64,000 bases of DNA from Candidatus Daviesbacteria bacterium (GTDB lineage: Bacteria; Patescibacteriota; Microgenomatia; Daviesbacterales; UBA10151): the NCBI GenBank assembly GCA_041690695.1, contig JBEPVZ010000003.1, forward strand, positions 13,633-77,632, read 5' to 3'. Numbering within the stretch: the first letter of the stretch is position 1; each line of letters begins with the position of its first letter. Under the pieces are notes generated by a model. It searched no databases, had not been told where the DNA came from, and saw nothing but the letters and a program-made list of their open reading frames with translations. Both the position numbers and the translations under genes were made by a program. Positions 10,174 to 53,197 of this stretch are shown piece by piece.

Positions 10174-10199
10174 CAACTTTCCTGAGCTTTTTAATAGTC

Positions 10200-12838: not shown

Positions 12839-15475
12839 ATGTGGAAGATGAAAAGAGGTTATACCTACAAATTAACCGCTTATTTATTTAGTTTTTTTGT
12901 GGTCTTAACTGGATTTCTGGTTCTCGGTCAGGGCCATTCAGTTTTTGCGATTGGGACAATTAAGAATTGTTACCCTGCTTCCTGTGATCAAGGACCGTCA
13001 ACCAGCGGCAACCAGATTACTTTCAGTGCTAACTCCCCCCAAACTCAAACCGTGGCCGGAAGAACATATACTTTATCTTGTTGGAACTCCCAGATGAGCT
13101 CAACTTCTGGGGGGGTAGTCACAATTGGGAATGATATCCCCAGTAATAGTCAATGTACTTTTCAACACACTTACTACTCGACCTCCGGCCCGTACGATGT
13201 CAGTGGTCAAACCCAGGCTTGTTACCTAGATCCTGATTCCCATACCTGTACCGCTGGACTGGAGAATGAAACGGTAGGTTTTGGTTCAATAACTGTTCAG
13301 GCTTGGTCAAGCCCAGCACCACCACCACCAAGTAGCGGCAGCTATTCATATGGGGTAAGTATTAATCCCAACCATGGTGGACAAATCACAAGCATGGCGA
13401 CAAGTGTCACAACTGATAATCCAGGTTACAGTTCAGCAACAATTTACTATGATGGATCATTCATTTGTAATATAGGCGCGAGTAAAAGTGGTGCCTGCAC
13501 TTCTCTGGGTGGGAATCAAGGCAGTCATACTGTCCGAGCCGATTTTGCTAATGGTGGATCGGCTACCACAACTTATACCGTTGATCCAGGACAAGGCCCT
13601 CAACCAACTCCACCTCCAAGTTGTCCTTGTGGAAGTTTTTTGAGTTGTAATAATAATGGAGTGCCTGGGGATGGCTCTAATCCGAGTTGTAGTAATCCGA
13701 CCTACCAATGCTATGGTGTGCTTTCAGATGGAAGTTGTGGCGGTGGAACGAACAGTGTTACTGGCACCTTAACTCCTGATCCAGTCTTGGTTGGAAATAG
13801 CGTCACAGTCACTGCCGTTAACAATGCTTCGTCAGCTGATGCAGTCTTTATCTGGTATCAAGGCAACCCTAGCTGTCTAACAAATGGCCCTGGTAAATGG
13901 AGCTGTGGACATGATCCTAGCGCCCTGAGCTACTTCCCTCCTCCAGGTTTTGGTGCGGATGTCACTTGCTCTGCATCGCCATCCTCTCCTGGGAGTAAAA
14001 CAACTGTCATTACTTGCCCTATTCCTGCGAATGCCACTCTGGGTCAGTATCATTGGTACGTATCCAACGGGACCACTTCTGAAGCAAGCAATGGAGGTTC
14101 TTCATATAATGGCACCATCGTTGATGGAAATAGTTGTAACGATCCTAAATATAGGATCTCTCCTAATACCGGACCAATCGGTACTCAAATTACTATCTCA
14201 GGTTGGCCAGCTGGAAACTACCAATTAGGTATCCAACCAAATATGTCAAATGACCAGGAACTCTTTAGTCAGCCAAATTATGCCAGTTGGTCAAACCTCG
14301 GCCCAGTCACTATGGGTGGTGATAGTAACCATGCCACTTGGACAGTGACTCAACCTCCTATCAACCCTGGTAGGTTTGTAGCCTTAATGTTCACGACAAA
14401 CATCAATGCTCCCTGGAGTGGTCAAACTGTGACTTGTCCTTTTACACCAACTGCGACACCAGTAGCCCCTGGAGCTTTCGACTTTACCTCAAGCACCGGA
14501 ACAGTCTGTACGAGTGGGACTCCTCATAATGATATCTACTGGACTCAATCGAGTGGCGCTGATACCTACTCTCTCTGGCGTTCTGATCCAAATGGACCCG
14601 GTTCATATATTGCCACCCTGGCTTCTTGGCAAACCAGTTTTGCTGATTACAACGTTACACCTGGAGTAGTTTATACGTACATACTTTATGCCCAGAATTC
14701 GGTTGGATTTACCCAGACAAGCACTTTCGACAAAGTTATAACCACCTCAACATGTGGCCCAGCGGGAATTACGCTTGATCCACCAACAACCTCATGTAGC
14801 GGTAGCCCGGCTAAACCAACCGTTTACCTAGCGTGGAGTAGTGCTGGACCTGGAGTAACCTACAGTATTCATCGTCAAGATTATGGCTTTATTCTAACTG
14901 ACTGGTTTGGTGGTGGGTACCCAGATAGCACCGTTAATCAAGGCACAAACTATACCTATTATATTGAGGCTAAAGATTCCTCCGGCCTAACTACCGACTC
15001 AAACACCCAATCAATCACCTCCGCCAGTTGTGATGGGATAGCTCCTCCCGACGTCAATATTAGTGGTGGACCAACAGCCGCTTGTTACTCCCCTACAACT
15101 TGGGCTGGTGAAACCCCTATTAAAGTCATTGCTAACGATGATCCAGGTGGAAGTGGTATTAAATCAGTAGCGGTTTTACTTTATGAGGTCAATTCACCAT
15201 CTGACACCTTAGTTAAGTCCTACCCAACAACTTTCACAGGTGGCTATTGGCAAACCGCCCCGGGAGTACCTCAAGCGTCAGATTTTACTTCGGGTCAAAG
15301 CTATTATCTTCGAGCTACCGCCACCGATAACGCGAATAATACTTCGGCTCCAAGTATTAAAACTCCAGTCTTTGTCTGGAGTAATACTGCGACAGGTTGT
15401 CTTAATCCGTTCTTAAATACAACTCTTGGAGATGTCCATTCTAATACCAAAATTGATACTCGTGGTGGACAATAA
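12839..15475 (+). CDS. Large secreted Cys-rich surface protein, paralog B (878 aa)
   Basis: Signal peptide MWKMKRGYTYKLTAYLFSFFVVLTGFLVLG. The conserved N-terminal domain (KNCYPASCDQG...QACYLDPDSH) and C-terminal domain (...LGDVHSNTKIDTRGGQ) are shared with 10200..12326. The middle is variable, Cys/Gly/Ser/Thr-rich with FN3-like repeats. Confidence 0.65.
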   Translation: MWKMKRGYTYKLTAYLFSFFVVLTGFLVLGQGHSVFAIGTIKNCYPASCDQGPSTSGNQITFSANSPQTQTVAGRTYTLSCWNSQMSSTSGGVVTIGNDIPSNSQCTFQHTYYSTSGPYDVSGQTQACYLDPDSHTCTAGLENETVGFGSITVQAWSSPAPPPPSSGSYSYGVSINPNHGGQITSMATSVTTDNPGYSSATIYYDGSFICNIGASKSGACTSLGGNQGSHTVRADFANGGSATTTYTVDPGQGPQPTPPPSCPCGSFLSCNNNGVPGDGSNPSCSNPTYQCYGVLSDGSCGGGTNSVTGTLTPDPVLVGNSVTVTAVNNASSADAVFIWYQGNPSCLTNGPGKWSCGHDPSALSYFPPPGFGADVTCSASPSSPGSKTTVITCPIPANATLGQYHWYVSNGTTSEASNGGSSYNGTIVDGNSCNDPKYRISPNTGPIGTQITISGWPAGNYQLGIQPNMSNDQELFSQPNYASWSNLGPVTMGGDSNHATWTVTQPPINPGRFVALMFTTNINAPWSGQTVTCPFTPTATPVAPGAFDFTSSTGTVCTSGTPHNDIYWTQSSGADTYSLWRSDPNGPGSYIATLASWQTSFADYNVTPGVVYTYILYAQNSVGFTQTSTFDKVITTSTCGPAGITLDPPTTSCSGSPAKPTVYLAWSSAGPGVTYSIHRQDYGFILTDWFGGGYPDSTVNQGTNYTYYIEAKDSSGLTTDSNTQSITSASCDGIAPPDVNISGGPTAACYSPTTWAGETPIKVIANDDPGGSGIKSVAVLLYEVNSPSDTLVKSYPTTFTGGYWQTAPGVPQASDFTSGQSYYLRATATDNANNTSAPSIKTPVFVWSNTATGCLNPFLNTTLGDVHSNTKIDTRGGQ

Positions 15476-37221: not shown

Positions 37222-39735
37222 ATGCTGACACTGCCTTTTAGATTCTTAAAATTCTATTTCCTTGACGCTGCCCGAACCTGGCTTAGAATGTGGACCAATA
37301 CCATGGCCTTTTTGGAAGAAGATCTGGCTGTTGGTTTAATGCTCAAGTTAATCTTCACCCCCCTTTTTCATGATCGAACGCTGGCTGGCCGATTTTTAAG
37401 TTTTATCTTTCGAGTCACTCGAATTGTCTGGGGGCTTTTTGCTTACTTAGCCGCGACCATCGTCATTTTTGGCTTAACTTTTGTCTGGTTTGCCCATCCT
37501 CTGATTATTATGGGCTGGCCGGAGTATTGGTATGTTAGCTTAGGAATTCTCCTTTTTAGCATCGCTTTATTTATCGATCGAGTGGTTGTTTATCCAAAGC
37601 GACCCCTCCGCCATGCTCAGAATTTAAGTCAGATTTGGGAAACGACCAAGCTTCATAAAAGTGATATTACCTGGGCTAAATTAACTCCGATGTTTGAGGT
37701 TAAGTTGTTGCTAGAGAGCCTCGAGCTAAATCCAACCCAATTTGGAAATTTAGAGATCCCATTTGATGATCAATTAGTTTTACGCGCCACTGAACTAGCC
37801 AGACAATGCAAAGCTCAATACCTAACCGCTGTCTACTTTTGGGTAGCGATGGTTGAGAGAGTTCCCAACCTAGATAACGAACTCTTAAAAGTTAATTTAA
37901 AAATCGATGATTTTCATCAAGCTTTAAACTTTTTTGAACACAAACGAAATACTTGGCGACGAATCTATATTTGGGATGAAGATTTCTCAGTTAGACACTT
38001 AAAAGGAACCAATCGAGGCTGGCTGGCAGCACCGACCCCAGCTTTAGACGCCGCCTCAGTCGATCTAACCAAAGAAGCCGCCCGATTTGGAGTGCCTGAT
38101 TTTATCGGCCGGAAAGAGGTCTTAGATCAAGTTATTAATGTTTTGTCATCAGATGGCAATCATAATTTAGTTTTAGTTGGTCCTGTTGGAACGGGTAAAA
38201 CAGCTTTGGTTAAATATTTGGCCAAGATGATTGTTCAAGGAAATGCTCCAAAATCGATGGCCACCAAGCGACTGGTTTTCCTTGAGCCAGCCCGGTTAAT
38301 GTCTGGCGCCAATAACGAAGGAGAGTTGGCTGAAAAGATTAAAAATGTCTTTGATGAGATTAGTTTTATTGAAGATGTCATTATCTTTATTGATGAGATT
38401 CATACTTTAGGGACTGGTGAGGCTGGGTCAACCTATAACCTATTCTCCTTGCTCGCTCCAGAGCTCGAATCCCAAAATTTTCAGTTTTTAGGTACAACTG
38501 AGCCTGAAAATTACAATCGAACGATTGAAAAAAACGGTTCGTTTGCTCGTATCTTTACCCGAGTTGATATTCCCCCAGCCAGTCCTGAAGAGACGATCGA
38601 GATTCTTCAAAACAGGGCTATTGATATGGAACGTTATCAAAAAACTAAGGTCACATTTTTAGCGATCAAGGAGGTTGTTCATTTAGCTAGCCGGTTTATT
38701 CATGAGCGAGTTTTGCCAGATAGCGCCATTTCAGTTTTGGAAGATTGTCAAACTTTAGTTAAATCTCAAACTGATAAGCAAATTAATCTTAAGCTAGTCC
38801 GCCAAGTTTTAGGCCAGAGAGTCAAAGTTCCAGTTGCCGAAATTAATCCTGATCAAAAGAAACAACTTTTGAATTTAGAAGATCAGATTCATGCTAAGTT
38901 CATCGATCAAGAAGAGGCCGTTAAAGATGTTTCGACAGTCCTCCGCCGAAGTGCGGCCCAACTCCGCGAAACCAATCGGCCAATTGGCTCATTCTTATTC
39001 GTTGGTCCGACTGGTGTTGGAAAAACTGAACTAGCTAAAACCTTATCTGAAGTTTACTTTAAAGGTCGGGATACTTTCGTCCGGTTTGATATGTCAGAGT
39101 ATCAAAATGCTGATTCGGTTAATCGCCTACTTGGCACTGACACAGAGCCAGGTCAACTAACGGAAATTATTTATCATCAACCTTATTGTCTACTGTTACT
39201 CGACGAGTTTGAAAAGGCTCATCCTCAGATTTTAACTCTGTTTTTACAGGTCTTGGACGACGGACGGTTAACCGATGGGGGCGGTAAAACGGTTGATTTT
39301 AGTAATACCATTATTATCGCCACCTCAAATGCGGCTTCGGTTACTATCGCTGAAGGACTTAAGGCCAAAAAACCACTAACTGAGATTAAAGCCACTGTTA
39401 CGGAAGAGCTTTTAAAGATTTATCGTCCAGAGTTAGTCAACCGGTTTGATGAGGTAGTTATCTTTAAACCACTCTCCCCTGAAGATCTTGATAAGGTCGT
39501 AACGATTAAATTGGCTAGTCTTAAAGCTAATCTCAAAGAACAAGGCTACTTGGTTGATTTTGCGCCAGCTTTAGTTGCGGAACTTGGTAAACGAGGCTTT
39601 GATCCGGTCCTAGGTGCCCGACCACTCAGACGATTAATCCAAGACACTTTGGAAGCGAGATTGTCGGTCATGATCTTGGAAGATAAGTTGCCAAAAGGCC
39701 AGCCAACTGAGATCGGGGTAGAAGTTTTAACATGA
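37222..39735 (+). CDS. Clp/Hsp100-family double AAA+ ATPase with N-terminal transmembrane domain
   Basis: Residues ~40-125 form 2-3 hydrophobic helices, followed by a Clp_N-like repeat. AAA1 Walker A LVGPVGTGKTA. AAA2 FVGPTGVGKTELAKTL with Walker B LLLDEFEKAHP. The M-domain is short, and no IGF/LGF ClpP-docking loop was recognised. Confidence 0.8.
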   Translation: MLTLPFRFLKFYFLDAARTWLRMWTNTMAFLEEDLAVGLMLKLIFTPLFHDRTLAGRFLSFIFRVTRIVWGLFAYLAATIVIFGLTFVWFAHPLIIMGWPEYWYVSLGILLFSIALFIDRVVVYPKRPLRHAQNLSQIWETTKLHKSDITWAKLTPMFEVKLLLESLELNPTQFGNLEIPFDDQLVLRATELARQCKAQYLTAVYFWVAMVERVPNLDNELLKVNLKIDDFHQALNFFEHKRNTWRRIYIWDEDFSVRHLKGTNRGWLAAPTPALDAASVDLTKEAARFGVPDFIGRKEVLDQVINVLSSDGNHNLVLVGPVGTGKTALVKYLAKMIVQGNAPKSMATKRLVFLEPARLMSGANNEGELAEKIKNVFDEISFIEDVIIFIDEIHTLGTGEAGSTYNLFSLLAPELESQNFQFLGTTEPENYNRTIEKNGSFARIFTRVDIPPASPEETIEILQNRAIDMERYQKTKVTFLAIKEVVHLASRFIHERVLPDSAISVLEDCQTLVKSQTDKQINLKLVRQVLGQRVKVPVAEINPDQKKQLLNLEDQIHAKFIDQEEAVKDVSTVLRRSAAQLRETNRPIGSFLFVGPTGVGKTELAKTLSEVYFKGRDTFVRFDMSEYQNADSVNRLLGTDTEPGQLTEIIYHQPYCLLLLDEFEKAHPQILTLFLQVLDDGRLTDGGGKTVDFSNTIIIATSNAASVTIAEGLKAKKPLTEIKATVTEELLKIYRPELVNRFDEVVIFKPLSPEDLDKVVTIKLASLKANLKEQGYLVDFAPALVAELGKRGFDPVLGARPLRRLIQDTLEARLSVMILEDKLPKGQPTEIGVEVLT

Positions 39736-40061: not shown

Positions 40062-41231
40062 ATGCTCAAAAAGCCTAGCTTCAAAACCCCATTAATTGTT
40101 CAAGAAAATCCCAAATTATCAATCTTTGTCGGAGTCTTACTGTTTTTAATCCTGCTCTTCATGGCCTTAATCTTCTTTTTTAAAAACCCTAATCTAGCTT
40201 CTAATTTCTCAAACAATAACTCGACCCCCGTCCAGTTTACCGATGCCCCTAAGGTTCAATTCTTTAATTACAATATCAGCAGTGCTAGCGCAGCCTTAAA
40301 GCCACCTACTCAAGTTAAGTTATATGACTTAAAAACTGATTTTAGTAATAATGAGATTCTAGACTTTGCGAAGAAGCTAGGTTTATCAAGTTATACGCCA
40401 GATAACGGGCCAACAGTAGTCGTTTATAACTATGATGACCCTGCTAATCGGGGCTTAATTCAATTTGATAAAACCACAGGTAGCTTTAGTTACGAATCAT
40501 ATGGAGTTTTAAAACCTTCTATTCAAGCCTCTACCCCTACTCAATCAGCCTTAAACATACTAACGGATCTAAACCTAAATGACTCGACATAGGTCTGTGA
40601 CTACACTTATCAGCGACAAGAAACTACAACTCAAACTTATCTTGAATGACATCATTCATGCGCAAAATTAGGTATGCCATTAACAAGCTTGGCCCAATCT
40701 TTAAATTTAACAGAGGACGAAAAGTTAATCTCAGCTGCACCCGGCAACGTTACAGAAGCGGTCGATGACGACCCGACAATTCAAAACGTCAAACAAAATG
40801 GCTTAGCTCAAGTAGCTAGTAATGGTCGGGCTAGACCAGCTGATTTTAATACTGTCACTGTGGGAGTTAATACCGATGGATCGATTCAAACAATCGTCTC
40901 TAATTTGCGATGGATTACAAGTGCTGACACCTTAGCTTCAAGCCAGTTAATTACTCCCCAAGAAGCACTGACGACATTTAAAAATAACCAGGCCGATATT
41001 GCTATGGTTGTTCCTGAAGGCCGCGGAGTAGTCGATCTGACTAAAGTTTTTCATCATAATACGGCTATTGGCCAAGATGGCAATATTTCTGAATTTCAAT
41101 TGATTTACCTTGAAAAAACCAGCGATACAGCCGAAACTCAATATCTTCCTTACTATTTAATTCGCGGTTACTCGGAGTTAGATTCTGGTTACAATGTTCG
41201 TTTTGCCGAGTTAATCAAAGCTATTAAATAA
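40062..41231 (+). pseudogene. Disrupted paralog of the 45399..46565 gene (frameshift near 40590 plus in-frame TGA near 40650)
   Basis: ORF 40062..40592 matches the N-terminal half of the 388-aa paralog (FDKTTG.FSY.SYG) and ORF 40674..41231 matches the C-terminal half (SRPSDFNTVTVG...YLVYLEK...YYLI.G...SGY.V.F...IK). The gap translates in a shifted frame to VCDYTYQRQETTTQTYLE*HHSCAKLGMPL, aligning to IGCNHSYQQTTLPGVTFVECHRQWDKLGLPL, with TGA at the conserved Cys. Confidence 0.55.
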
Positions 41232-41640
41232 CTATGACAAAACTCGCACTATCACTACCAGGCTTTCAAAATGCGGTCTCAAGTCCTGCTAAAACTCAGT
41301 ATCAGGATCTTGGCTCACTACTTTCAGGTGGTTACTCTATTCTGCTTTTGATTGCTGCCTTTTTAATGGTTTATTGGTTGTCTTGGGGAATCTTTCAATA
41401 CATCTTTGCTGGTGGTGAAAAAGAAAAGTTAGCTCATGCTCGGAAAAGAATTACTTGGGCGATTGTTGGTTTTATCATTATTGTTTTAGCTTTTACGATT
41501 CGTTACTTTGTAGAAGAAGTCTTCCCCCCTCAAAATACATTAACCCAAGTCGATACTCCCCTTAACTATGTCTCAACTGATCTTCAACAACCCCCAACTG
41601 CAGTTCAACAACCTCAAACTGGTGGTACTGGTGGTCAAGC
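41226..41640 (+). repeat. Copy A of a perfect 415-bp direct repeat (copy B at 46560..46974)
   Basis: Identical by direct comparison, from 8 nt upstream of the ATG through codon ~135. Identity ends inside the Gly/Thr-rich linker, where copy A has an extra 21-nt GGTGGQA-type unit. Confidence 0.9.
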
Positions 41641-43237
41641 CGACGGAACAGGCGGCCAAGCTGGTACAAATGGTCAGCAAAATCCCAGCCAACACAGCCC
41701 TATTTTACCAAATGCTCCTGGGGGACCAGCTCAACAGGATCAGATTACAACCAATATTCCTGAAACTTGCCAGCAATATGTTTCAGCTCATGGTTCAGCT
41801 ATAGCCGACATTCAAGGCTATAATCTATCTTTTAATGTTCCTAATTATGGAATATTAAATGTCGCCATGAAAAGTCGAGGTATTTATTTGACTGACGATA
41901 CCCCCGTTACAACGGCACAATCTCAGAGAGAGCAAACTAAAAACGCCTTTTTCCAAGTCATCAAACAACAATATTTAAGAAACTTTGCTTATGATCTGGT
42001 TAAAAGACGGAAAAGAGAAGCTGATCTGGGAGTTGATCCCAAAAATCAGAGTTTTGATATAAATCACAATTTTAATAATACCGATGAGATCAAAACTGAG
42101 TTTAGTAAGTTAGATAATTCGTATAAGTCCACCTTCAATGGTGGTGAACCAGATAGTATTGGTTGTAGCTTTAATCCTGATCCAGGCACTGCTCTATATT
42201 ACCCCGCTCCTTTATATAACTGTACTAAAAATACCCAATTAGATAATGGCATGATTGAGATAATCGCTGATGGAGTTGCCTCAGATTATAAAAACTCGAC
42301 AGTGGCAGAGCGTTACGACTGGGCTAACAAAGTTGAAGATTATAAATTCGGTAATTTAAACTACACCCTTCCTTACTACTTTACTGACTTTATTGCTAAT
42401 CCTTCGAGCACCAATGGTGCATCGTCTGGGGCTGCCAAGGCCTGTTATGTAACTGGATTTGTTCACAACCCGCAATTAGATAATCTAAACCGTCAGGCTA
42501 ACTTTTCTGAGTTTGGTTGCTATGAATTGGCAGTCACAGGGCCTGGCAATTCAGCTATTCCGCTTGAAAACGGCAACTTAAATCAACAAGTTCAAGATTA
42601 TGAGAACTCTGTCGCTTCGCATCAACCTGGTGGGACATCAACAATCAAGGCGACCTTGCCAAACGACGATAAAGCTTTTAAATATGTTGAAGGTGCACCA
42701 GGTCAGACGGTTGATGCAAGTGGTCAAATAATAATTGGGGCGGTCGGCGAACCACTCTATGCACAAGGTACGGGCAATGTTGTTAAAAAGTTATTTCACT
42801 ACGATTACGATACCAGTAAGATTATCTGGAACGACCCAACTAGCTATTATGTTATTCCAAATATTCAAACTGATCCTAATAATCCAAGTTGGAATCCGAT
42901 TATTGATAAAATTGGCCAAGGTTTAGGATTAAACGCGGTCGAGATTACGGCTCTTAAGTTGAGTATGATTCATCACGCTATGTACTTTACTCCCCAGGAA
43001 GCACCTTACCTAAAAATCTCAGTGGTTGATCCTGCTGAAGTCAAGGAAAAAATACCATTAAGTATTGATAGTAGCTATGGTGAGGTTGATCCTAAATCTT
43101 TCCACCGTAATAACTTACTAGTTGAGAAACTAAAAATCGATGACCCCACCTTACATGGTCATGAACCCCAGCTTAAACCTTATCCCGTTTCCCCAACACC
43201 GGTAATTATGTTTGAAACGGGTGTGGCAGTGAGATAA
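41234..43237 (+). CDS. Fusion protein: N-terminal VirB2/TrbC-like (CPR T4SS-pilin-like) two-helix hairpin plus long variable C-terminal ectodomain (667 aa)
   Basis: N-terminal [65 protein letters not shown] has a TM1 / short basic loop / TM2 topology like VirB2/TrbC pilins. It is followed by a GTGGQ-rich linker and a ~500-aa unique region. The first 415 nt are identical to the 46568 gene. Confidence 0.6.
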   Translation: MTKLALSLPGFQNAVSSPAKTQYQDLGSLLSGGYSILLLIAAFLMVYWLSWGIFQYIFAGGEKEKLAHARKRITWAIVGFIIIVLAFTIRYFVEEVFPPQNTLTQVDTPLNYVSTDLQQPPTAVQQPQTGGTGGQADGTGGQAGTNGQQNPSQHSPILPNAPGGPAQQDQITTNIPETCQQYVSAHGSAIADIQGYNLSFNVPNYGILNVAMKSRGIYLTDDTPVTTAQSQREQTKNAFFQVIKQQYLRNFAYDLVKRRKREADLGVDPKNQSFDINHNFNNTDEIKTEFSKLDNSYKSTFNGGEPDSIGCSFNPDPGTALYYPAPLYNCTKNTQLDNGMIEIIADGVASDYKNSTVAERYDWANKVEDYKFGNLNYTLPYYFTDFIANPSSTNGASSGAAKACYVTGFVHNPQLDNLNRQANFSEFGCYELAVTGPGNSAIPLENGNLNQQVQDYENSVASHQPGGTSTIKATLPNDDKAFKYVEGAPGQTVDASGQIIIGAVGEPLYAQGTGNVVKKLFHYDYDTSKIIWNDPTSYYVIPNIQTDPNNPSWNPIIDKIGQGLGLNAVEITALKLSMIHHAMYFTPQEAPYLKISVVDPAEVKEKIPLSIDSSYGEVDPKSFHRNNLLVEKLKIDDPTLHGHEPQLKPYPVSPTPVIMFETGVAVR

Positions 43238-43241
43238 AGTT

Positions 43242-45344
43242 ATGGTCACCAACTCTGCGACAGACCCACTTTCAAAAAATAAGCGTAAATTAAAATTAAT
43301 TTTAATTGGTTTCGGATTACTGGTTATCTTTATACCAATTTCAGCATTCTTAATTAATCATTTTCAAAGGCCATCAACTCCACCTAGCCTAGCCGATTTT
43401 CCACAAATGACCCCATACACTAGTAGTGCCTCGGCCTTTGTAGCTAATCAGTTAATTGTTAAATATAAAGAGGCTTCATCTCCAGCCGAGTTAACGGACA
43501 ACAATGAAAAAGATGCAATTGCCAAGCTCTATGCCGAGCTCGGAGTTTCTTCACAGCTTCAAGCTTATCCTTCAACCGATAACCCAGATCTTAAGGAGTA
43601 CTATCTACTCGAGTTCAAAGCAGGTTCGAGTCTTAGTCTTGCCAAACAGACTCTGTCACAGCTCAAAGAAGTTGAAACCGTCGACCTAAATCCAGTCCTA
43701 AGCTTGCAAGCCACCCAAGTAGCCGGGTTAACTAATGATCTTTACTCTCTATATCAATGGAATTTAGGAAAGATTAATATTGCTCCTGTTTGGAAAGCTG
43801 GTTACCTTGGCTCAGATAAAGTTGGCATAGCAATTTTAGATTCAGGATTAGTTTTTCCTCAAAAGCATCCTGATTTACCCAGCAATATCATTCATGTTAC
43901 AAAACCTGATGACTATAACCAAGCTGCTGAGTTTTATGGAACAGCCCAGAATGACCATGTTCATGGCACTGTTGTAACAGGAATTATTGGTGCGATCAAA
44001 GACAATCATCAAGGTATTAGCGGAGTAAGTCCGATGGTTCAGATATATTCTTATCAAGTTTGTCGAAATGAAGAGTGTGATAGCTTAGCAGCTAGCCAAG
44101 CCCTCGAGTCTATCGCTCAATCCCCTGGCAAGGTTAAAGTAGTCAACTTAAGTTTAGGAGCTCCTAGCCAATCGACACCTTCAGAACCAGTTTGCCCCGA
44201 TTGGGTACAAGGACCAATTAACGATCTAACCAGTAAAGGCATTCTAGTCGTAGCCGGAGTTGGGAATGGTGATTTTACCACTGGTAATCGAGTTGGAATT
44301 GATGCCAAAAACTTTATTCCAGCCTCATGCAAAGGAGTTTTAGGTGTAGCTGCAACTAATGCCAATGACCAAAAAGCTTCATATTCAAATTATGGATCGG
44401 TGGCAAAAATTTCAGCACCGGGAGGTGAGAACGAGGCCAATGGTGCAATTTTATCGACAATTCCATTTGGAGATATTCCTAAGGATGGTCAGCTCGGGCC
44501 TTATGGAAAATATTTCGGCACATCGATGGCTACACCCCAAGTTAGTGCCGTCGCCGCTTTATTGTTTTCAGCCAATCCCGACTTAACTGTCGATAAGATT
44601 AAACAATGTTTAACTGAGGGAGGAGATCCAGTAAGCAACTTAGATCCTAAACAACCAATTGGTCCAAGATTGAACGCCGCTGGAGCTTTTAATACTTGTG
44701 GAATTCAAATCGCAAACACAACCACAGCTGATGCTAAAACAGCAACTCCACCGGTCATCCAACCCGCCCAGCCAAAAACTCCACCTCCTCCCCCGCCACC
44801 GGTCGTTTCAAAAAGTATATTACCCACTCTCCCATCAACCAACACTCCAACTACCCAAACCCCAACGAGTGTTGACTTACCCTCTGCCCTCTTTAAAGAA
44901 GTTAAAGTTGACCCTGAACAAGGCCAACTTAACGCTTTAATTACTGCCAATGTAGCTTTGTCTAATACCCAAACTCATCAGTACAAATTCCACTGGTGTG
45001 CCAATCCAACGGATATCGCGCCTCACCAGATCTGTAACGACATCACTAATTACTTTAACTTTCAAAGAGCTCCATCCGATGGACCGACTCCCAATACCAT
45101 TTTAAATGATCAGATTATTGGTCAATTTAGTCCTTCTTTGATCTGGCAGCCTTCAATTGCAATATCGGACAGAACAACTGGTAATGCTATTTATGGAAAC
45201 TATATTCTTGAAGTTGATGCCTGTAACAAGCAACCTGATGGAACCTGTCAGAACTCCAACAAACAAGATGTTTGTAGCGTTATTCAATACGATGAGTGCG
45301 TTAATTATGATCATTACAATGTCATCTTTCAACTAAACCCCTAA
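43242..45344 (+). CDS. Membrane-anchored subtilisin-like serine protease (peptidase S8) with conserved C-terminal 6-Cys domain
   Basis: N-terminal TM anchor. I9-like propeptide region. Catalytic triad context AILDSG (Asp), HGTVVTG (His), [16 protein letters not shown] (Ser). The C-terminal ~150 aa ([11 protein letters not shown]...DECVNYDH) are shared with the 48777 gene. Confidence 0.8.
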   Translation: MVTNSATDPLSKNKRKLKLILIGFGLLVIFIPISAFLINHFQRPSTPPSLADFPQMTPYTSSASAFVANQLIVKYKEASSPAELTDNNEKDAIAKLYAELGVSSQLQAYPSTDNPDLKEYYLLEFKAGSSLSLAKQTLSQLKEVETVDLNPVLSLQATQVAGLTNDLYSLYQWNLGKINIAPVWKAGYLGSDKVGIAILDSGLVFPQKHPDLPSNIIHVTKPDDYNQAAEFYGTAQNDHVHGTVVTGIIGAIKDNHQGISGVSPMVQIYSYQVCRNEECDSLAASQALESIAQSPGKVKVVNLSLGAPSQSTPSEPVCPDWVQGPINDLTSKGILVVAGVGNGDFTTGNRVGIDAKNFIPASCKGVLGVAATNANDQKASYSNYGSVAKISAPGGENEANGAILSTIPFGDIPKDGQLGPYGKYFGTSMATPQVSAVAALLFSANPDLTVDKIKQCLTEGGDPVSNLDPKQPIGPRLNAAGAFNTCGIQIANTTTADAKTATPPVIQPAQPKTPPPPPPPVVSKSILPTLPSTNTPTTQTPTSVDLPSALFKEVKVDPEQGQLNALITANVALSNTQTHQYKFHWCANPTDIAPHQICNDITNYFNFQRAPSDGPTPNTILNDQIIGQFSPSLIWQPSIAISDRTTGNAIYGNYILEVDACNKQPDGTCQNSNKQDVCSVIQYDECVNYDHYNVIFQLNP

Positions 45345-45398
45345 TAAAAACGAGTCTTTATCCTTGCCTGAAAGTCGATTAGGTGGTAAGTTTAGTAT

Positions 45399-46565
45399 GT
45401 GCTAAAAACTGTTCAAGACTGGGCTCGGGCTAATAAGTTATTATTCAGTTTAAGCGCAGGTGGGCTTATTTTAATTCTGATTCTGGGAATAGTCACTCTT
45501 GTTTTGAAACTTAATCAGTCTCACACCACTCCCACTTCTACTAAATCATCATCACAATCAACTAGTCTGCCGACCTATCCCGCTCCAGCTGTGAAATTTA
45601 ATAGCTACCAGATCAGTGATGCCGCTAAAGCTTTGAAAGTGCCTGATCAAGTTAAACAATACCTCTTAAGAGCCCATTTTTCAGACTCAGACGTTAAAGC
45701 TTTTAGCAGAGCTTTTGGTTTAAATGACTATTACCTGGATGAATCTGGCCAAGCAGTCGCCTCAAACGTTAGTGATGTTAATAACCAAGGCTTAATGAAT
45801 TTTGATAAAACGACCGGCTTTTTTAGCTATCGATCTTACGGTTTAATTCAACCATCGGCTTCGTCTTCAGGCACAATTAATGCAGCGGTCAGTTATTTGA
45901 GCGATGTTGGATTGACTGATCCGACGATTGGTTGCAACCATAGCTACCAACAAACCACTCTTCCAGGCGTAACTTTCGTTGAATGTCATCGTCAGTGGGA
46001 CAAGCTCGGCTTACCACTGGTGAACTTACCAGGCGTTCTCAATATTCCTGAAAATCAAACTTTTACCGCTACTCGACCAGGCGATGTCGCTGAATTCTCA
46101 CTCCTTGACCCCTCTATCGCTAGCGTTAGTGCTTATGGAGTCTTAAAACCAACGGACAATGGTAAATCTCGGCCCTCAGATTTTAATACTGTCACAGTTG
46201 GGCTTTGGGGTGGAACTAATATTTATAGTTTATCTTCAAATCTGCGAACGATTATCTCCTCATCAGTTGTGACAAACTTATTAACTCCCGATGAAGCTCT
46301 CCAAGCTTTTAAAGATCAAAAAGCCGAGGTTTCTTTAACCCTGCCGACCGGTCAAGGCTCGTTTGACTTTGCTAAAGCTTATCCTAATAACCAGGCCCTA
46401 GCCCAAACAGCCACCATTAATAAACTCTATCTCGTTTACCTTGAAAAACCCCATGACCAGGCTCAAACTGACTACTCACCCTATTATTTAATTCAAGGCA
46501 CCGCCAATTTAAGCAGCGGTTATACAGTCAAATTTGTTCAAGTGCTATCAGCCATTAAAAAATAA
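45399..46565 (+). CDS. TM-anchored protein of unknown function (388 aa), intact paralog of pseudogene 40062..41231
   Basis: N-terminal TM helix LLFSLSAGGLILILILGIVTLVL. Conserved blocks FDKTTGFFSYRSYG, SRPSDFNTVTVG, YLVYLEKPHDQAQTDYSPYYLIQG. No known domain recognised. Confidence 0.5.
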   Translation: MLKTVQDWARANKLLFSLSAGGLILILILGIVTLVLKLNQSHTTPTSTKSSSQSTSLPTYPAPAVKFNSYQISDAAKALKVPDQVKQYLLRAHFSDSDVKAFSRAFGLNDYYLDESGQAVASNVSDVNNQGLMNFDKTTGFFSYRSYGLIQPSASSSGTINAAVSYLSDVGLTDPTIGCNHSYQQTTLPGVTFVECHRQWDKLGLPLVNLPGVLNIPENQTFTATRPGDVAEFSLLDPSIASVSAYGVLKPTDNGKSRPSDFNTVTVGLWGGTNIYSLSSNLRTIISSSVVTNLLTPDEALQAFKDQKAEVSLTLPTGQGSFDFAKAYPNNQALAQTATINKLYLVYLEKPHDQAQTDYSPYYLIQGTANLSSGYTVKFVQVLSAIKK

Positions 46566-46974
46566 CTATGACAAAACTCGCACTATCACTACCAGGCTTT
46601 CAAAATGCGGTCTCAAGTCCTGCTAAAACTCAGTATCAGGATCTTGGCTCACTACTTTCAGGTGGTTACTCTATTCTGCTTTTGATTGCTGCCTTTTTAA
46701 TGGTTTATTGGTTGTCTTGGGGAATCTTTCAATACATCTTTGCTGGTGGTGAAAAAGAAAAGTTAGCTCATGCTCGGAAAAGAATTACTTGGGCGATTGT
46801 TGGTTTTATCATTATTGTTTTAGCTTTTACGATTCGTTACTTTGTAGAAGAAGTCTTCCCCCCTCAAAATACATTAACCCAAGTCGATACTCCCCTTAAC
46901 TATGTCTCAACTGATCTTCAACAACCCCCAACTGCAGTTCAACAACCTCAAACTGGTGGTACTGGTGGTCAAGC
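46560..46974 (+). repeat. Copy B of the perfect 415-bp direct repeat (copy A at 41226..41640)
   Basis: See copy A. Confidence 0.9.
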
Positions 46975-48757
46975 TGGTACAACTCATGCCGCTCCGGTTG
47001 TAGTAACTAATCCTGGCACACTAGAATCATTACCCCACAATACAGATGGTAGCCCCAAGATTAGCTTCAGCTGTAGCGCCAGCCCTCAAACCATTAATTA
47101 TGATGACACTTTGACCGTCACCACCACTAATAGCCATCCCCAGGGTATTAATATCTTTATTGATAATAATACTCAAAATGCTGGCTCACTGAGTCCGATC
47201 ACAACCCAATCGACCACAAATAAAAATGTTTATAACATCGGCTTTAAGGCCCAGTTACAATATAACCCTCTCTACGCTCCACCTTATAATCACACCTTAA
47301 TTTTAGTTGATAATGGCAATCCGGCCATCTCAGAAAGCTGTACTTTTAACGTCAGCCCTCAAACGAGTTGTTTAAATGGGGACAAGAACGAAGTCTCAAC
47401 ATTTTCGATCAACTTACCCGACTTCGGAAACTATAATGTTACTTACTCAACACTCGGGACAACCACTGAAAATGCGGGCAGAGCGGCTGGGGTGGTTACT
47501 TCATTTTTTACCGACAAACCATCAAATTTAAGTAATAATCCGACTCTCTTAAATAGCCTCAGAGAAGCCATTTACAAGCGAGTTGAAGACCAATACGTCA
47601 TTAATGTCGCCGCCTTCCTGGTGAGAGTTAATCAAAATATCTCTCGGCCGCTACCAGCCAAAGGCTCGGTTGATGAAGCGAATGCAGTCGCAGCTCTTAA
47701 AAACTTAGATTTCAATCATCAAGATACTAAATTCACCAGCCTTGACCAACTCACTAATATCAAAAGTCCTAACGATATCTTGTCACTTTTTTCAAGCGAG
47801 TGTAAGTTTCAGGAACAGGGTGGAACGATGCCGTATTATCAGTGCAATCCTCAAACCATCGGCGACTATGGTGATCCAGGTTTAAGCAATCGGGTTAACC
47901 AAACTGCCCAAGACGTCGCGAGTAGAGTCTTTACCTTAATAAATAGTAATCCAAACGATATTATTGCGGCCTTAACTCCTACCGCAAATCAACCAGCTTT
48001 ATTTGTCGGTCGACCGATGAGTAATATCTATGAATCATTAATTACTCCTAATATTTCTGATCCTAATCCCAACAATGCTAATTTAGCTTTGGGGAATGAT
48101 CTAATAACCCAAAGAGGTATTAACCCAGGTCCTAATCTAGTTGACCTTTATCCTAAAACAGTCAGCCAGCTTCAATCCTGTTTTATAACCGGGGTGACTT
48201 TAAATTCACCGAGCTTATTCTTATACACCCAGATACCCCAATCAGTTAAAGTCACCACCCAATCCCAGGTTGGCTACTCAGACCCAGCCACAAATGATAA
48301 CAGCTGGAATGTCACCACTTCCCCCTCTGGCCAAGTGACAACAGATAATAATATTGAGCGAGATTATCTCTATTATGAATATAAGAGGGCCAGTGTTAGC
48401 TTTAACCAGCCCAACACCGGTTATATTGTCACAAGATCTGACTGGCAAAATTTAATCCGCAATACTATTGCTAAAGGTTTAGGACTTAATCAAAAAGAGA
48501 CTGACCGCATGATTAGTGAAGTTAGTAATGCTTTAGTCGGCTCTTCAAATTCACCATATTTAAGAATCTCATTGATTGATCAAGCCGAATTAAATTCTCA
48601 ATTGCCACTCCATTTCTCAACTCAGCCTGATCATCTCTATCGCTTCCACCTCATGGTCAGCTCTGTTCAGGCACCAGCTTCAATTCCCGAGCCCACTCTA
48701 AAAACGGTCGAGCGCTTAGGTTTTACCGCCATCGAGCTGGGTGCGGTCTACCGCTAA
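46568..48757 (+). CDS. Fusion protein: VirB2/TrbC-like pilin N-domain plus different variable C-terminal ectodomain (729 aa)
   Basis: The first ~135 aa are identical to the 41234 product. The downstream ~590 aa are unrelated in sequence to the 41234 C-terminus, and Asn/Thr/Ser-rich. Confidence 0.6.
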   Translation: MTKLALSLPGFQNAVSSPAKTQYQDLGSLLSGGYSILLLIAAFLMVYWLSWGIFQYIFAGGEKEKLAHARKRITWAIVGFIIIVLAFTIRYFVEEVFPPQNTLTQVDTPLNYVSTDLQQPPTAVQQPQTGGTGGQAGTTHAAPVVVTNPGTLESLPHNTDGSPKISFSCSASPQTINYDDTLTVTTTNSHPQGINIFIDNNTQNAGSLSPITTQSTTNKNVYNIGFKAQLQYNPLYAPPYNHTLILVDNGNPAISESCTFNVSPQTSCLNGDKNEVSTFSINLPDFGNYNVTYSTLGTTTENAGRAAGVVTSFFTDKPSNLSNNPTLLNSLREAIYKRVEDQYVINVAAFLVRVNQNISRPLPAKGSVDEANAVAALKNLDFNHQDTKFTSLDQLTNIKSPNDILSLFSSECKFQEQGGTMPYYQCNPQTIGDYGDPGLSNRVNQTAQDVASRVFTLINSNPNDIIAALTPTANQPALFVGRPMSNIYESLITPNISDPNPNNANLALGNDLITQRGINPGPNLVDLYPKTVSQLQSCFITGVTLNSPSLFLYTQIPQSVKVTTQSQVGYSDPATNDNSWNVTTSPSGQVTTDNNIERDYLYYEYKRASVSFNQPNTGYIVTRSDWQNLIRNTIAKGLGLNQKETDRMISEVSNALVGSSNSPYLRISLIDQAELNSQLPLHFSTQPDHLYRFHLMVSSVQAPASIPEPTLKTVERLGFTAIELGAVYR

Positions 48758-48776: not shown

Positions 48777-51700
48777 ATGTCTGAACCAAACACTCCTAGT
48801 CCTATCGTAGCTCCACCATCGACTCAAGCGTCCTCACCTCATACAAGTAAACTAGCGTTTTTTAAAACTCATAAAAAACTCGCCATTATTGGGGGCTATG
48901 TACTGGTTTTAATTTTAATTCCTTTAATATTTCTGGCGATCTCAGGTCAAAAAAAACAGCCGCAGACTAGTCCAACGGAGCTCGAAGTCGTTATACCTAA
49001 ACCAGGCGCCGCCAATCAGCCAAAGGTTGTTGCGGACGAGCTGATTGTTAAGTACAAGGCTGGCCAATCGCTTAATGAAGCCAGTTCTGCGGCCAATATC
49101 TTGCCTCTTCAAACCGCTGAGCAAGCTGCAGGCATGGCTAGCCAAGAGCCACTTTATCTCTCAGATGACCCTAGTTTAAAAGAGTTTTACGTTTTTAAGC
49201 TCAAAAATGGCACCAATTTAGATCAATCTCGAAAAGCCTTAGCTCAACTTCCCCAAATTGAATCAGTTGAAGTCAACCCGATTCTGTCACTACAAGAGCA
49301 AAATCAGGTCACGATGTCAGTTGCACCTAATGATTACTTTTATCCCCAACAATGGAACTTACAAAAGATTCAGATCGAGAAGGTCTGGCAACAATATACT
49401 TTAGGTTCAAAAGACGTTTCGATCGCCTTAATTGATGGCGGAGTTGATCCGACTCATCCTGATCTTCCTCGAGATATTACGATCGGTAAAAACTTTATTA
49501 GCGATTCCCAAACGGATCATGACCACGCCACCGGCTTAGCTGGAATTATGGTCGCTCAAACCAATAATAAGATTGGTATTAGCGGGATTAGCCCGGGAGT
49601 TCATTTAGTCTCTTTTCAAGCTTGTAGTGATTTAGATCCTCAATTTTGTAGCATGGTTTCGATCGATCGGGCAATTGAGACCGCTGCAAATACTAAAGGG
49701 GTCAGAGTTATTAATATCAGTATTGAGGGCGAAAATACCCAAGATGGGGTTAATATCGGTTGCCCAAGCTTTACCCAAGCTTCAATCACTAAGGCCACTC
49801 AGGCCGGAGTGCTGGTCGTCGCTAGCTCTGGTAATGGCATTGATAATCATGGTAAAGCGGTTGATGCCAAAAGCATGAATATTGGAACTTGTGTCGGCGT
49901 TTTAATGGTTGGGGCGACTACCATTACCAAAAATGGCGATCAAGAAGTTGAGAAACGAGCTAACTATTCAAATTACGGATCCTCAGTTAAATTATCCGCT
50001 CCAGGTGGAAGCATTCCAGATCCAAGTAATCCAAACGATCCGCTTAATCATGGTATTATCTCGCTTGGCAAAACCAAACCCGATCAAAAAGGTCCACGCT
50101 ACACCCAAGCTTCTGGAACTTCAGATGCTGCCCCTGAAGTTAGTGCCGTTGCGGCGCTGCTCTTCTCAGTCAAACCCAGCTTAACCGCCGAACAAGCCAC
50201 AGATTGTTTAATTCAAGGCGCTGATACTATTCAAACTGATTTGCCGATTGGTCCAAGATTAAACGCTCTGGGAGCATTTAAAGCTTGTGGGATTAAGCCA
50301 ACTAATTATCCATCAGCTAATTCGGCTCCAACAGTCACACCTACAATCACCCTCTCCCCCTCTGACACAGTCACTGAAGGCAGTAATATTCAAATAACCT
50401 CAAATTTAAATGGCGAGATCGGTCAATTAGTCGCATTTAAATTGTGTTTTGAAGGCCCGGATAAATCTAACTTAAACTCTGACAAGAGCTGTTCTGGATT
50501 AATTGCCGGAACAACTTTACCGGCCCAAGCCATTAATAAAAGCTATGGCTATTACCAAGTTTATGGAATGAGTTGTCAAACAACCGGTAGCGCCCCAAGC
50601 TTGACCTGTGATCCCACTGTTCGACCAACCCAAGAGGCATGGAGCCAGCCGATTCAATTAGTCAAAGCTGGCAGCACCGGTGGGACTGGTGGCACCACCA
50701 CCCAACCTTCCACCACTCAGACTGGTCTGAATAAGATTCAACACATTATCATCATGGTCAAAGAGAACCATACCTTTGATAACTATTTTGGAACATTCCC
50801 TGGCGCCAATGGCACCACCACCTACCCTGGCCCAGATGGTAATCCGAAACCGTTGGCCCATGATCCTGATTCTTTACTAAATGATATTAATCACGATCCA
50901 GCCGCCGCTCACCTAGCTTACGATTCTGGCAAAATGGATAATTTCAAAAATATTCCAGGAGCAATCCAAGATGGTCATGACTATTCTGATGGCCAATATT
51001 ATCAGGCTGATATTCCAAATTATTGGGCTTACGCTCAAAAATATACTTTACATGATAACTTTTTTACCAACATCCTTGGACCGAGCTTTGAAAATCATCT
51101 TTTAACTATCGCTGGAGATAATCCTAGCAATGTCGATGGTAATCCCCAAGGCGATACTAATCCCAACCACAACAATGGTGCCGGGGTTTGGGGATGTGAT
51201 TCAGCTTCCAATACCCAAGTCGAGAAACGAGATGGCAATGGTAGTATCACTACGACTTATCCCTGTTTTGACTTGCCAACTTTAGGCGATAGTCTAAATA
51301 AAGCTAATATCTCTTGGAAATATTATGCCCCAGCCCAAAACCAGCCCGGTTATCAATGGTCTGCCTACGATGCTATTAAAGGTATCCGAAATTCAGATCA
51401 ATGGTCTACGCATGTTGTTGACTCTGACCAGTTCCAAAAAGATGCTGCTAGTGGTAATTTACCAGCCGTTAGCTGGCTAGTTCAACCGTTTGACGTTAGT
51501 GATCACGCACCTTCGAGTGTCTGTCAAGGTGAAAACTGGACAGTCGATCAGATGAACGCGATTATGGGTAATTCGAACTCATGGGATAACTCAGTCGTAA
51601 TCTTAACTTGGGACGATTTTGGGGGCTTTTACGACCATGTTACCCCTCCCAAAGGACCTAATGGCGAGATTATGGATGGCTTTAGAGTTCCAGCCTTAAT

Positions 51701-52640
51701 TATCTCCCCTTATGCTAAACCAGGCTTTATTGATCATACTCAAAACACCTTTTCATCGATTCTTAAATTCGTCGAGAATCGCTATGGTTTACCACCTCTT
51801 GGCTCTCTTGATAGTGCGGCAACCGATTTCAGTAGCTCACTTGATTTCAATCAAACCCCACTCTCAGCTCTAACCTTAAAAACCAGAAGTTGTCCAGCCA
51901 CAACTCAAGAGAAATCAGGATCAGCCACGACTCCTGTTCCACCCGTCAAGACTCCTCCGACCACTCCACCGTCAAGCTGCTTAATCAAGATTGGACCACT
52001 CTGTATTCCGAGTTTGCCTAAAATTACTTTTCCGACCTTACCAAAGATTGATCCATCCGCAATTTGTAAAGTTCTTCATACCTGTTCGAACCCCAAACCA
52101 GACACAAACACTTCACCCGCCAGCTCATCGGCCACCCAAACTAACCCACCTCCAGCTCAAAACCAATCTAGTGTCGATTTACCTTCGGCTCTCTTTAAAA
52201 CAGTTAAAGTCACACCTGAGGATGGCAAGCTTGATAGCTTAATTAGCGCCGACATTAATTTATCAAACACCCAGTCTCATCAATATAAATTCCATTGGTG
52301 TGCTAGCCCAGCTAATATTGCTCCTCATGAGATCTGTAACAATATTACTAACTATTTTAACTTTGCCAGAACCGATCCAGCGACAGGCACAATTGTTAAT
52401 GATCATATTACCGGCCAATTTAGCCCATCCTTAATTTGGAATCCTGATATCGTAGTTTCCAATCGCGCTCCAACCAACGCCTATTATGGAACATATTTCC
52501 TTGAAGCCGACGTCTGTAATACTCAACCCAATGGCAAATGTAATAACTCTAAAAATGAGGATGTTTGTAGCATTATCCGAAATGATGAGTGTGTTAATTA
52601 TGACCATTTCTCGGTCAAGTTTAATTTAAACCAACAATGA
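48777..52640 (+). CDS. Membrane-anchored multidomain enzyme: S8 subtilisin plus phosphoesterase (phospholipase C / acid phosphatase family) plus shared C-terminal 6-Cys domain (1287 aa)
   Basis: S8 motifs [13 protein letters not shown] (Asp), DHATGLAG (His), [16 protein letters not shown] (Ser). Central [23 protein letters not shown] matches the phosphoesterase-family ENRSFDHYFG motif. C-terminal ~150 aa are homologous to the 43242 C-terminus. The TGA stop overlaps the ATG of the next gene. Confidence 0.8.
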
Positions 52641-53197
52641 CAAAATTAGCCTTATCACTTCCAGGTTTCTCAGACGCGATTGATAGTCCGACCAAACAAG
52701 CTAAACCTCAATTTCAAGATCTTGGTTCCCTACTGTCTGGTGGATACAGTATCTTACTTTTGATTGTCGCTTTTTTAATGGTTTATTGGTTGTCTTGGGG
52801 AATCTTTCAATACATCTTTGCGGGTGGTGAGAAAGAAAAGTTAGCTCATGCCAAAAAGCGAATTACCTGGGCAATTGTCGGTTTTATAATCGTGGTTTTA
52901 GCATTTACGATTCGAGGGTTTGTCGAAGAAACATTTACCCCTCAAAACACCCTAACTCCCGTTAGTGTCCCCGGAGCCGTTTCGCCCAATCAAGCTCAAG
53001 GTAATTCGGGCAATAGTGGAGGTGGCACGACTGGCGGCGGAGTCAATCCGGGTAGTGGTACTGGAAACACTGGCAATCCTAATCAAGGCCAGCCTGGTGG
53101 AGGAGCTGGAAATGGCGGGTCACTTAGCTTGCCTGGTAGTGGTGGGACCTTTAAAGTTCAGGGTTATATTCCTGGCCAACACCTATTATCAAATTAA
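52637..53197 (+). CDS. Short VirB2/TrbC-like pilin-family protein with Gly-rich C-terminal tail (186 aa)
   Basis: The N-terminal 110 aa are ~85% identical in protein to the pilin-like N-domains of 41234/46568. The tail is [40 protein letters not shown]. Confidence 0.55.

Follow-up and report, generated by a model that had tools for sequence, protein, structure and literature searches.

The locus described here lies in a stretch of 64,000 nucleotides (nt) from Candidatus Daviesbacteria bacterium, an uncultured member of the Microgenomates (GenBank assembly GCA_041690695.1, contig JBEPVZ010000003.1, positions 13,633 to 77,632 of the forward strand), which is referred to as the window and whose own numbering is used throughout. 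The locus consists of two tandem modules, A and B, of three genes each, followed by a lone pilin gene, pilC. Each module contains an 'up' gene, a gene in which a pilin-like N-terminal domain is fused to a long C-terminal ectodomain ('ecto'), and a gene for an S8 protease. The two fusion genes, pilA-ectoA and pilB-ectoB, begin with a block of 415 nt that is the same in both, and it is this block that separates each ecto sequence from its up gene (Table 1).

Table 1. Features of the locus, in window positions; 'family' denotes the up–ecto protein family of ~830 amino acids (aa) described in the text.
Feature	Position	Strand	Description
upA	40062..41231	+	Homologue of the N-terminal half of the family; two in-frame stops leave open reading frames (ORFs) 40062-40592 and 40674-41231
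Identical block, copy A	41226..41640	+	Exact 415-nt match to 46560-46974; hairpin codons 1-97, then Q/P/G-rich linker to codon 135
pilA-ectoA	41234..43237	+	667 aa: pilin hairpin, linker, divergent C-terminal half of the family
S8A	43242..45344	+	700 aa: membrane-anchored subtilisin-family protease (PF00082, E 8e-46) with Cys-rich 167-aa C-terminal domain
upB	45399..46565	+	388 aa: intact homologue of the N-terminal half of the family, with N-terminal transmembrane (TM) anchor
Identical block, copy B	46560..46974	+	Exact match to copy A; PF18895 match
pilB-ectoB	46568..48757	+	729 aa: pilin hairpin, linker, ~100-aa extra insert, C-terminal half of the family
S8B	48777..52640	+	1287 aa: S8 protease (PF00082), PF04185 phosphoesterase (phospholipase C/acid-phosphatase-like, 219 bits), Cys-rich 167-aa C-terminal domain
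pilC	52637..53197	+	Free-standing 186-aa pilin with G-rich tail, directly 3' of the S8 gene; PF18895

Organization of the tandem modules

The corresponding genes of the two modules are related throughout. By BLASTP ectoA and ectoB are 24% identical over ~540 aa (E 6e-12), upA and upB share 39-42% aa identity, and S8A and S8B are 37% identical in the protease part and 63% identical in the C-terminal domain. The ectodomains are thus members of one family and not, as the first-pass annotation had it, unrelated sequence over the 1.6-1.8 kb downstream of the shared block. At the nucleotide level the flanks of the block are ~55-60% identical between the paralogues. Because ectodomains, proteases and up genes are all homologous between A and B, the whole three-gene unit is regarded as an old duplication.

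Both pilin–ecto ORFs are complete, each having its own ATG 2 nt past the upstream stop codon (upB ends in ...SAIKK and its stop, 2 nt 5' of the pilB start codon), and both are predicted from sequence to be translationally coupled to the upstream genes. The fusions stay open over 530-590 codons across a 21-nt in-frame indel; that both keep their frame over this length despite the indel argues that the junctions are genuine and that the gene structures have been selected. Read-through of the upstream stop was considered and rejected, as the pilin ORF is in a different frame and a second stop comes next in the frame of the upstream gene.

The two modules differ in several details. In upA the two stops lie 57 nt apart (TAG at 40590-40592 and TGA at 40647-40649), within the region of the most conserved motifs, and the TGA replaces a nearly invariant Cys of the FVECHR motif. 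The downstream fragment of upA contains no TM segment or signal. Probably either module A is decaying or upA is a two-piece gene. Neither ectoA nor any of the relatives has the ~100-aa insert of ectoB (ISFSCSASPQTINYDDTLTVTTTN...), which lies in the region 46976-47530 (residues ~1-184 of the modelled part); its predicted local distance difference test (pLDDT) score in AlphaFold2 (AF2) models is <50, and it may be an added beta-rich domain. The matches of S8B to TIGR03396/03397 are below the cut-offs of those models. The scan of related loci revealed no homologue of the S8 C-terminal domain.

The identical block

Positions 41226-41640 and 46560-46974 are identical at 415 of 415 nt, with no ungapped extension at either end, exactly as first described (from 8 nt 5' of the start codon to codon ~135), and a repeat finder reports this pair as the sole 100% repeat family across the window. 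Read 5' to 3' the block contains the last Lys codon of the upstream gene, its TAA stop, CT, the ATG, a type IV secretion system (T4SS) pilin hairpin and the linker. Its left edge is 8 nt 5' of the ATG and its right edge 2 nt past codon 135 of the downstream gene. Past the right edge copy A alone carries 21 extra nt (GCCGACGGAACAGGCGGCCAA, encoding ADGTGGQ), after which 10 more nt are common to A and B (GCTGGTACAA); beyond these there is no alignment. The end of identity had been placed inside the linker, with one extra 21-nt repeat unit in copy A. The 21 nt are present and resemble the preceding TGGTGGQ in protein, but by eye (the differences were not counted) many bases differ between the two, and the extra unit is consequently no fresh slippage copy.

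Between the two copies of the block there are 0 differences at ~97 synonymous sites (Nei-Gojobori). By the same method the proportion of synonymous differences (pS) between A and B is 0.78 for the N-terminal halves of the up genes, 0.72 for their C-terminal halves, 0.77 for the ectodomains, 0.77 for the S8 proteases and 0.75 for the S8 C-terminal domain; synonymous sites are therefore saturated in every flanking pair of paralogues and unchanged within the block. At the identity of 76% that is seen between A and C, the chance of 415 matches is P ~5e-49. The identity of the block is neither chance nor the product of purifying selection. As none of the 415 sites differs, the copies are estimated to have been last homogenised at least some two orders of magnitude more recently than the surrounding genes were duplicated. 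The first-pass annotation had taken a sharp block of perfect identity in diverged surroundings as the mark of recent gene conversion, and a pS of 0 within the block against 0.72-0.78 in its flanks bears this out. Base composition shows no anomaly over the block, there are no inverted repeats in the 64-kb window, and a scan for promoters and terminators gave matches at chance level only.

The same figures bear on an assembly or polishing artefact, which had been raised at the outset as a collapse or duplication. Under this explanation the blocks would be similar without being identical, or one set of junctions would be chimeric between strains. The 85.9-kb contig is metagenome-assembled and has been seen once, in NCBI only, no independent assembly holds these proteins, and De Bruijn assemblers do merge near-identical bubbles. 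A collapse, however, gives one copy and not two, all four junctions are unique sequence, and the unique spacer between S8A and upB (45344-45399) physically joins module A to module B. Moreover, both fusions keep long in-frame ORFs, an identity of ~76%, the level of copy C, cannot be turned into 100% by an artefact, and the sole alternative path through the repeat graph (in-R-out plus circle) is less parsimonious. What survives of the objection is that bubble-popping could have erased a few differences; as an account of the two copies themselves an artefact is very unlikely.

The pilin module

The N-terminal module is a VirB2-like T4SS pilin hairpin and not a type IV pilin. The matches to PF18895 (T4SS_pilin) score 31.5 bits for A, 31.3 for B and 36.9 for C against a cut-off of 26.6, and that of pilA spans residues 35-91. 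Scores against NCBIfam NF045849 (Mbov_0395 pilin-like, from a Mycoplasma integrative and conjugative element) are 33-40 bits with a cut-off of 40, which pilC alone reaches. No type IV pilin or N_methyl family was found in the Pfam scan, where PF18895 was the sole convincing match, accompanied by one sub-threshold unrelated TM family.

When pilA is modelled by AF2 from its sequence alone, only the hairpin folds, with helices at residues 20-58 and 63-96 and pLDDT means, over blocks of 10 residues, of 82-91 across residues 31-90. Hydropathy places TM segments at ~36-57 and ~75-93 with a K/R-rich loop between them. This arrangement of two TM segments and a K/R-rich loop implies that the C-terminus faces outward.

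The closest relatives outside the contig are at most 55% identical to the module and are proteins of 103-135 aa (the 38 closest homologues) from Microgenomates such as Daviesbacteria. T4SS pilins are characteristically small and stand-alone (~100-135 aa), a size that A, B and C, at 667, 729 and 186 aa, all exceed. Close homologues of the module are grouped 5-6 genes to an array, next to PrgI/TraC/VirB4-like genes (loci L001 and L002). No VirB4/VirB6/PrgI-type T4SS genes were found among the ~55 of the 62 larger window ORFs that were scanned. A pilin hidden Markov model (HMM) run on the window finds three copies only, each starting with ATG. Scans of genomes and metagenomes with an alignment of the pilin N-domain gave no close relative, exact look-ups of pilB and pilC returned no contig and no second assembly holding these proteins, and in a word-index homology search full-length pilB, swamped by its low complexity, recovered itself and pilA and upB recovered itself only.

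The up and ecto genes and the ~830-aa family

A profile built from ectodomains A and B was searched against 1.84 billion representative proteins and matched 113 of them, two of which are the window's own proteins; the majority measure 720-880 aa and carry no Pfam domain. The 1000 bits that pilA-ectoA itself scores are circular, the profile having been built from A and B. A phmmer search aligns residues ~10-387 of upB with the N-terminal ~400 residues of ~75 of the family proteins (best E 4e-85), and the concatenated window halves align colinearly and end to end with 38 relatives. These alignments show that 'up' and 'ecto' correspond to the two halves of a surface protein of ~830 aa from Microgenomates, which is otherwise encoded by one ORF. 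A conserved (V/I)PA(L/I)K motif directly precedes the break, and the linker motifs VAG..T and LQLxTFxP follow it.

Sixty loci of the family were fetched, 22 from GTDB species representatives and 38 from JGI metagenomes, among them Daviesbacteria, Levybacteria, Gottesmanbacteria and Roizmanbacteria. Both halves are present in ~45 of the 60, as one stop-to-stop ORF in all but three: in L018 and L025 the gene is split between overlapping frames, and in L035 by one in-frame stop. In no fetched locus does a pilin domain lie between the up and ecto halves, and a pilin HMM built from the homologues of the module matched 0 of ~75 full-length up–ecto proteins. The window is the only case found in which the gene is split by a pilin. 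In both of its paralogues the split falls at one and the same residue (AIK and AIKK, each followed by the stop), and the sequence responsible, made up of stop, start, hairpin and linker, coincides exactly with the identical block of 415 nt.

The stop in L035 (1817-1819) is in the linker and leaves ORFs 320-1816 and 1820-2938 with no pilin between them; either the linker is a tolerated break point or the stop is a sequencing error. Two up–ecto paralogues in tandem are common in other Microgenomates (L004, 10001-15100; L016; L030; L043/L044), with no pilin or S8 gene between them, from which it follows that tandem duplication of the up–ecto gene is recurrent or ancient.

The family norm is a single polypeptide with one N-terminal TM anchor, and neither window copy conforms to it. 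The only anchor of the relatives is the N-terminal TM segment of the up half, and apart from the hairpin no TM segment or signal is present in the ecto halves. The hairpin is for this reason what can export and anchor the orphaned C-terminal half. In the window the family would now be made as two chains, forming an extracellular membrane-anchored protein of which the second chain is anchored by the hairpin. An AF2 model of ectoB made with the family alignment has pLDDT means over 10-residue blocks of 91-98 from about residue 411 to the C-terminus, giving a confident C-terminal region of ~190 aa. A Foldseek search of this model against the PDB returned no match at E <= 0.001, and PDB sequence searches with the family were empty.

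The third pilin copy

The start codon of pilC overlaps the stop of S8B (ATGA). A diverged third copy at 52637 had been put at ~80% identity to the other two; by measurement pilC is 76% identical to the A/B module in nt over a codon alignment (71% ungapped) and 78-84% identical in aa. Between A and C the pS of the pilin module is 0.59 (dS, substitutions per synonymous site, 1.17; dN, per non-synonymous site, 0.10; dN/dS ~0.08), which is below the saturated values of the flanks.

The identity between A/B and C is also mosaic. Over nt 121-195 of the ORF it reaches 93-98%, and elsewhere it is 56-87% (56-82% outside the windows that flank the core). The longest identical run between A/B and C is 16 codons (permutation P = 0.002). 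A core of ~75 nt, at 41354-41428, 46688-46762 and ~52766-52840, is thus near-identical in all three copies, synonymous sites included, and is either an older conversion tract or a stretch under constraint at the nucleotide level. The mosaic fits an older and shorter putative conversion tract with C besides the recent event between A and B.

By eye the end of the G-rich tail of pilC (53100-53197) resembles the family motif LN(I/V)PGYGTLNV from the start of the ecto half. That pilC is a truncated third fusion with a remnant of the 'PGYG' motif was considered and rejected, having no support from the family HMM.

Gene neighbourhood in relatives

In two of the fetched loci (L031, 2740-8439, and L032) the gene order is a ClpB-like AAA+ protein (873 aa), a 120-aa pilin and an up–ecto gene (872 aa), and in L031 the up–ecto gene overlaps the pilin gene by 11 nt. 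This order is syntenic with the window, where a ClpB-like gene (37222-39735) lies just 5' of module A. The window ClpB-like protein has an apparent hydrophobic N-terminal extension of ~130 aa, as judged by eye.

In a third locus (L045, 1629-3263; JGI Ga0194111_10037981) a 544-aa S8 protease carries a C-terminal T4SS-pilin hairpin after a P/T-rich linker and is followed directly by an up–ecto gene; this fusion shows that in this gene neighbourhood the pilin hairpin has been joined to different partners. S8 genes are also found near the family in L008, L013, L026 and L047. As pilin and S8 genes recur beside the family in relatives, pilC is considered to be in an ancestral-type position. Modules A and B look like the result of a local relocation, in which the head of a neighbouring pilin gene would have moved into the linker between up and ecto.

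Evolutionary history of the split genes

We consider it probable that the gene was split and the anchor captured long ago, that concerted evolution followed and that the whole pilin module was converted very recently, with no switching of the pilE/pilS type involved. Fission and anchor capture would be a single event, in which a neighbouring pilin gene was locally rearranged, and would pre-date the duplication of the three-gene module. The pilin modules would thereafter have evolved in concert through gene conversion of the RecA type: an older short tract would link copy C to A and B, and a very recent one would have copied the whole module between A and B. The recent tract would have ended where homology ends, at the upstream stop codon on the left and at the indel-rich linker on the right. 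The identity may accordingly be a by-product of recombination between the only similar sequences of the array, or an effect of it that preserves compatibility; no programmed variation device would be involved. A single fission that preceded the duplication is favoured by the derived gene order and the S8 C-terminal domain that both modules share and by the same position of the break.

Several observations weigh against this history. In neighbour-joining (NJ) trees the bootstrap for A and B as sisters is 51% for the up half, 3.5% for the ecto half and 70% for the two combined, and 'insertion first, duplication second' is accordingly an argument from parsimony and no proof. The identity falls from 100% to background on both sides of the block with no intermediate shoulder, whereas conversion within an old insert common to A and B might be expected to have left one on one side or both; the pattern agrees just as well with the second paralogue having recently received the module as a whole. 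All of the evidence comes from one metagenome-assembled genome (MAG), whose nearest relatives found are ~55% identical for the pilin and 44% for up, and the up–ecto family is without fold matches in the PDB. Finally, the perfect identity could have been polished by the removal of bubbles in the assembler, and because a few real differences may have been erased in this way 'perfect' may mean 'near-perfect'.

The first two of these observations point to another explanation, a recent spread, in which only one of the two genes would have been split until lately; a copy of the 415-nt cassette would then have entered the linker of the other paralogue at the homologous position, and the identity would reflect a young insertion. 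The route could have been micro-homology at ...GC(T/C)ATTAAA and the G-rich linker, or the replacement of a very different older insert. It would account for the edge-to-edge coincidence of the identical block with the foreign insert. The distances also suit it: for the up half the NJ distance between A and B is 1.05 and that from B to its nearest outside homologues 0.96-1.03, and for the ecto half the values are 2.08 and 1.3. Copy A is a long branch in these trees, and A and B are about as far from each other as from homologues in other orders, so that their duplication may pre-date lineages that lack the insert. In addition, the hairpin is promiscuous here, being free-standing in L031, C-terminal on S8 in L045 and N-terminal on ecto in the window. 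Yet flanks of ~55-60% nt identity are too low for RecA-mediated transfer into an unsplit recipient, and it is as poor substrates for homologous transfer that they place this explanation second. It would take a remarkable coincidence for illegitimate recombination to land at the same residue and in frame with ecto, the larger window ORFs scanned include no transposition or homing machinery, terminal repeats were not found either, and the order up/pilin–ecto/S8 common to both modules, with its lineage-specific S8 C-terminal domain, indicates that an already rearranged unit was duplicated. A recent spread is thus unlikely, and an early fission followed by conversion is preferred.

A programmed cassette system of the kind known from Neisseria pilE/pilS or Anaplasma msp2/p44 would explain a constant 5' module followed in tandem by divergent 3' parts, the N-terminal module serving as the handle for swapping ectodomains behind one expression site. 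Such systems resemble the locus in that conversion acts in a surface-protein gene family with a constant N-terminal part, and VirB2 arrays of Patescibacteria and Rickettsiales have been proposed to serve surface variation (PMC12102498; PMC3556328). Cassette-like swapping of ectodomains was also the suggestion of the first-pass annotation, which the gene structures do not support. Both genes are complete and apparently coupled to the genes upstream, both are probably expressed, and silent truncated copies are absent. Conversion has affected the constant part, a T4SS hairpin, and the variable parts, which make up just two 'cassettes', are 24% identical and are anciently diverged homologues of a conserved, housekeeping-like family. 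The repeats are direct, so exchange between them deletes or duplicates 4.9 kb instead of switching reversibly, and as they stand they can now mediate deletion or amplification of this intervening segment. No recombinase was found among the ~55 larger ORFs scanned, and there are no inverted repeats. What the window records is one recent conversion and one older tract, and not repeated switching; a cassette system is highly improbable.

A diversity-generating retroelement, a shufflon and a transposon were likewise rejected as candidates. Besides the lack of inverted repeats, no integrase, recombinase, transposase or reverse transcriptase is present among the larger window ORFs scanned (~55 of 62).

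Comparison with known systems

Gene conversion and concerted evolution are known between tandem bacterial paralogues, for example the tuf genes and the rRNA operons. As in those cases, the window shows a sharp tract of identity in diverged paralogues that includes synonymous sites, is non-reciprocal and is limited to a sufficiently similar stretch. Unlike them, the tract covers a captured foreign module in two genes that are otherwise 24-44% identical in aa. Gene fission with the gain of a new targeting or anchor sequence is likewise a general evolutionary phenomenon, and here too one ancestral ORF would have become two, the downstream half gaining a start codon and a membrane-targeting element. 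The difference is that the acquired element is a complete pilin gene head from the same neighbourhood, which is present twice and kept identical.

Within the same phylum-level group, arrays of VirB2-like genes with the same Pfam domain (PF18895) have been described from Patescibacteria, in which members share a mean of 25% and at most 54% aa identity (PMC12102498). As published arrays reach no more than 54%, values of 100% between A and B and 84% against C are exceptional for this family. The window differs from these arrays further in that two members carry ectodomains of 530-590 aa, the copies lie 5-6 kb apart and are interleaved with other genes, and no T4SS machinery was found in the ORFs scanned in the 64-kb window.

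The modular type IV pilins PilB and PilC of Streptococcus sanguinis (PMC8179133, PMC9934059) offer a parallel in protein design, with a bulky functional domain grafted onto the C-terminus of a pilin module, from which display on the outside would follow. Those pilins belong to type IV pilus machinery, whereas the carrier here is a VirB2-like hairpin and its grafted domain derives from the fission of a neighbouring gene.

Other features of the window

The window also holds a bacterial 16S rRNA gene and genes for housekeeping proteins (PolA, FtsH, RecF-like, Fpg, an ATP-dependent ligase, a protein of the TyrRS/TrpRS class and others). A second large pair of tandem paralogues, also without a Pfam domain and also mosaic, is found at 10200-12326 (708 aa) and 12839-15475 (878 aa). 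The two members of this pair share 70% identity over the N-terminal 133 aa (71-78% in nt) and 35% over the C-terminal ~280 aa, with a middle part that cannot be aligned. Its repeats lie at 10178-10387 and 12883-13092, with a small ORF 5' of each copy, and a protein with a cohesin domain is encoded at 9580-10173.

Implications

Gene conversion itself is ordinary. What is unusual at this locus is that the homogenised sequence is a hairpin that split a conserved surface-protein gene in two ancient paralogues, and that would now be the sole membrane or export element of the C-terminal half. The noteworthy finding is this pilin-mediated gene fission in both paralogues, a variant of known phenomena that is seen in one MAG. 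A perfect repeat in diverged genes can, as here, signal the capture of a domain instead of antigenic variation.

VirB2-like pilin arrays are widespread in Patescibacteria, and one has been reported to be essential in Ca. S. epibionticum (PMC12102498). The fusion of the hairpin to large ectodomains in the window and to a protease in a relative suggests a general anchor or display module. A broader proposal, which is tentative and on balance doubtful, is that the VirB2-like hairpins of Patescibacteria are portable modules for export and anchoring, or for display on a pilus, that can be grafted onto surface proteins, the two fusions being 'modular T4SS pilins'. The carrier would then have been kept identical because both fusions need the same machinery for assembly or processing, possibly the adjacent S8 proteases. 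The hairpin is linked genetically to a widely conserved, uncharacterised family of ~830 aa and to S8 proteases, which makes these proteins candidates for work on the cell surface of bacteria of the candidate phyla radiation (CPR). If the proposal is true, such modules would be the equivalent, among T4SS pilins, of the modular type IV pilins, and would give epibiotic CPR bacteria a new means of displaying adhesins or enzymes.

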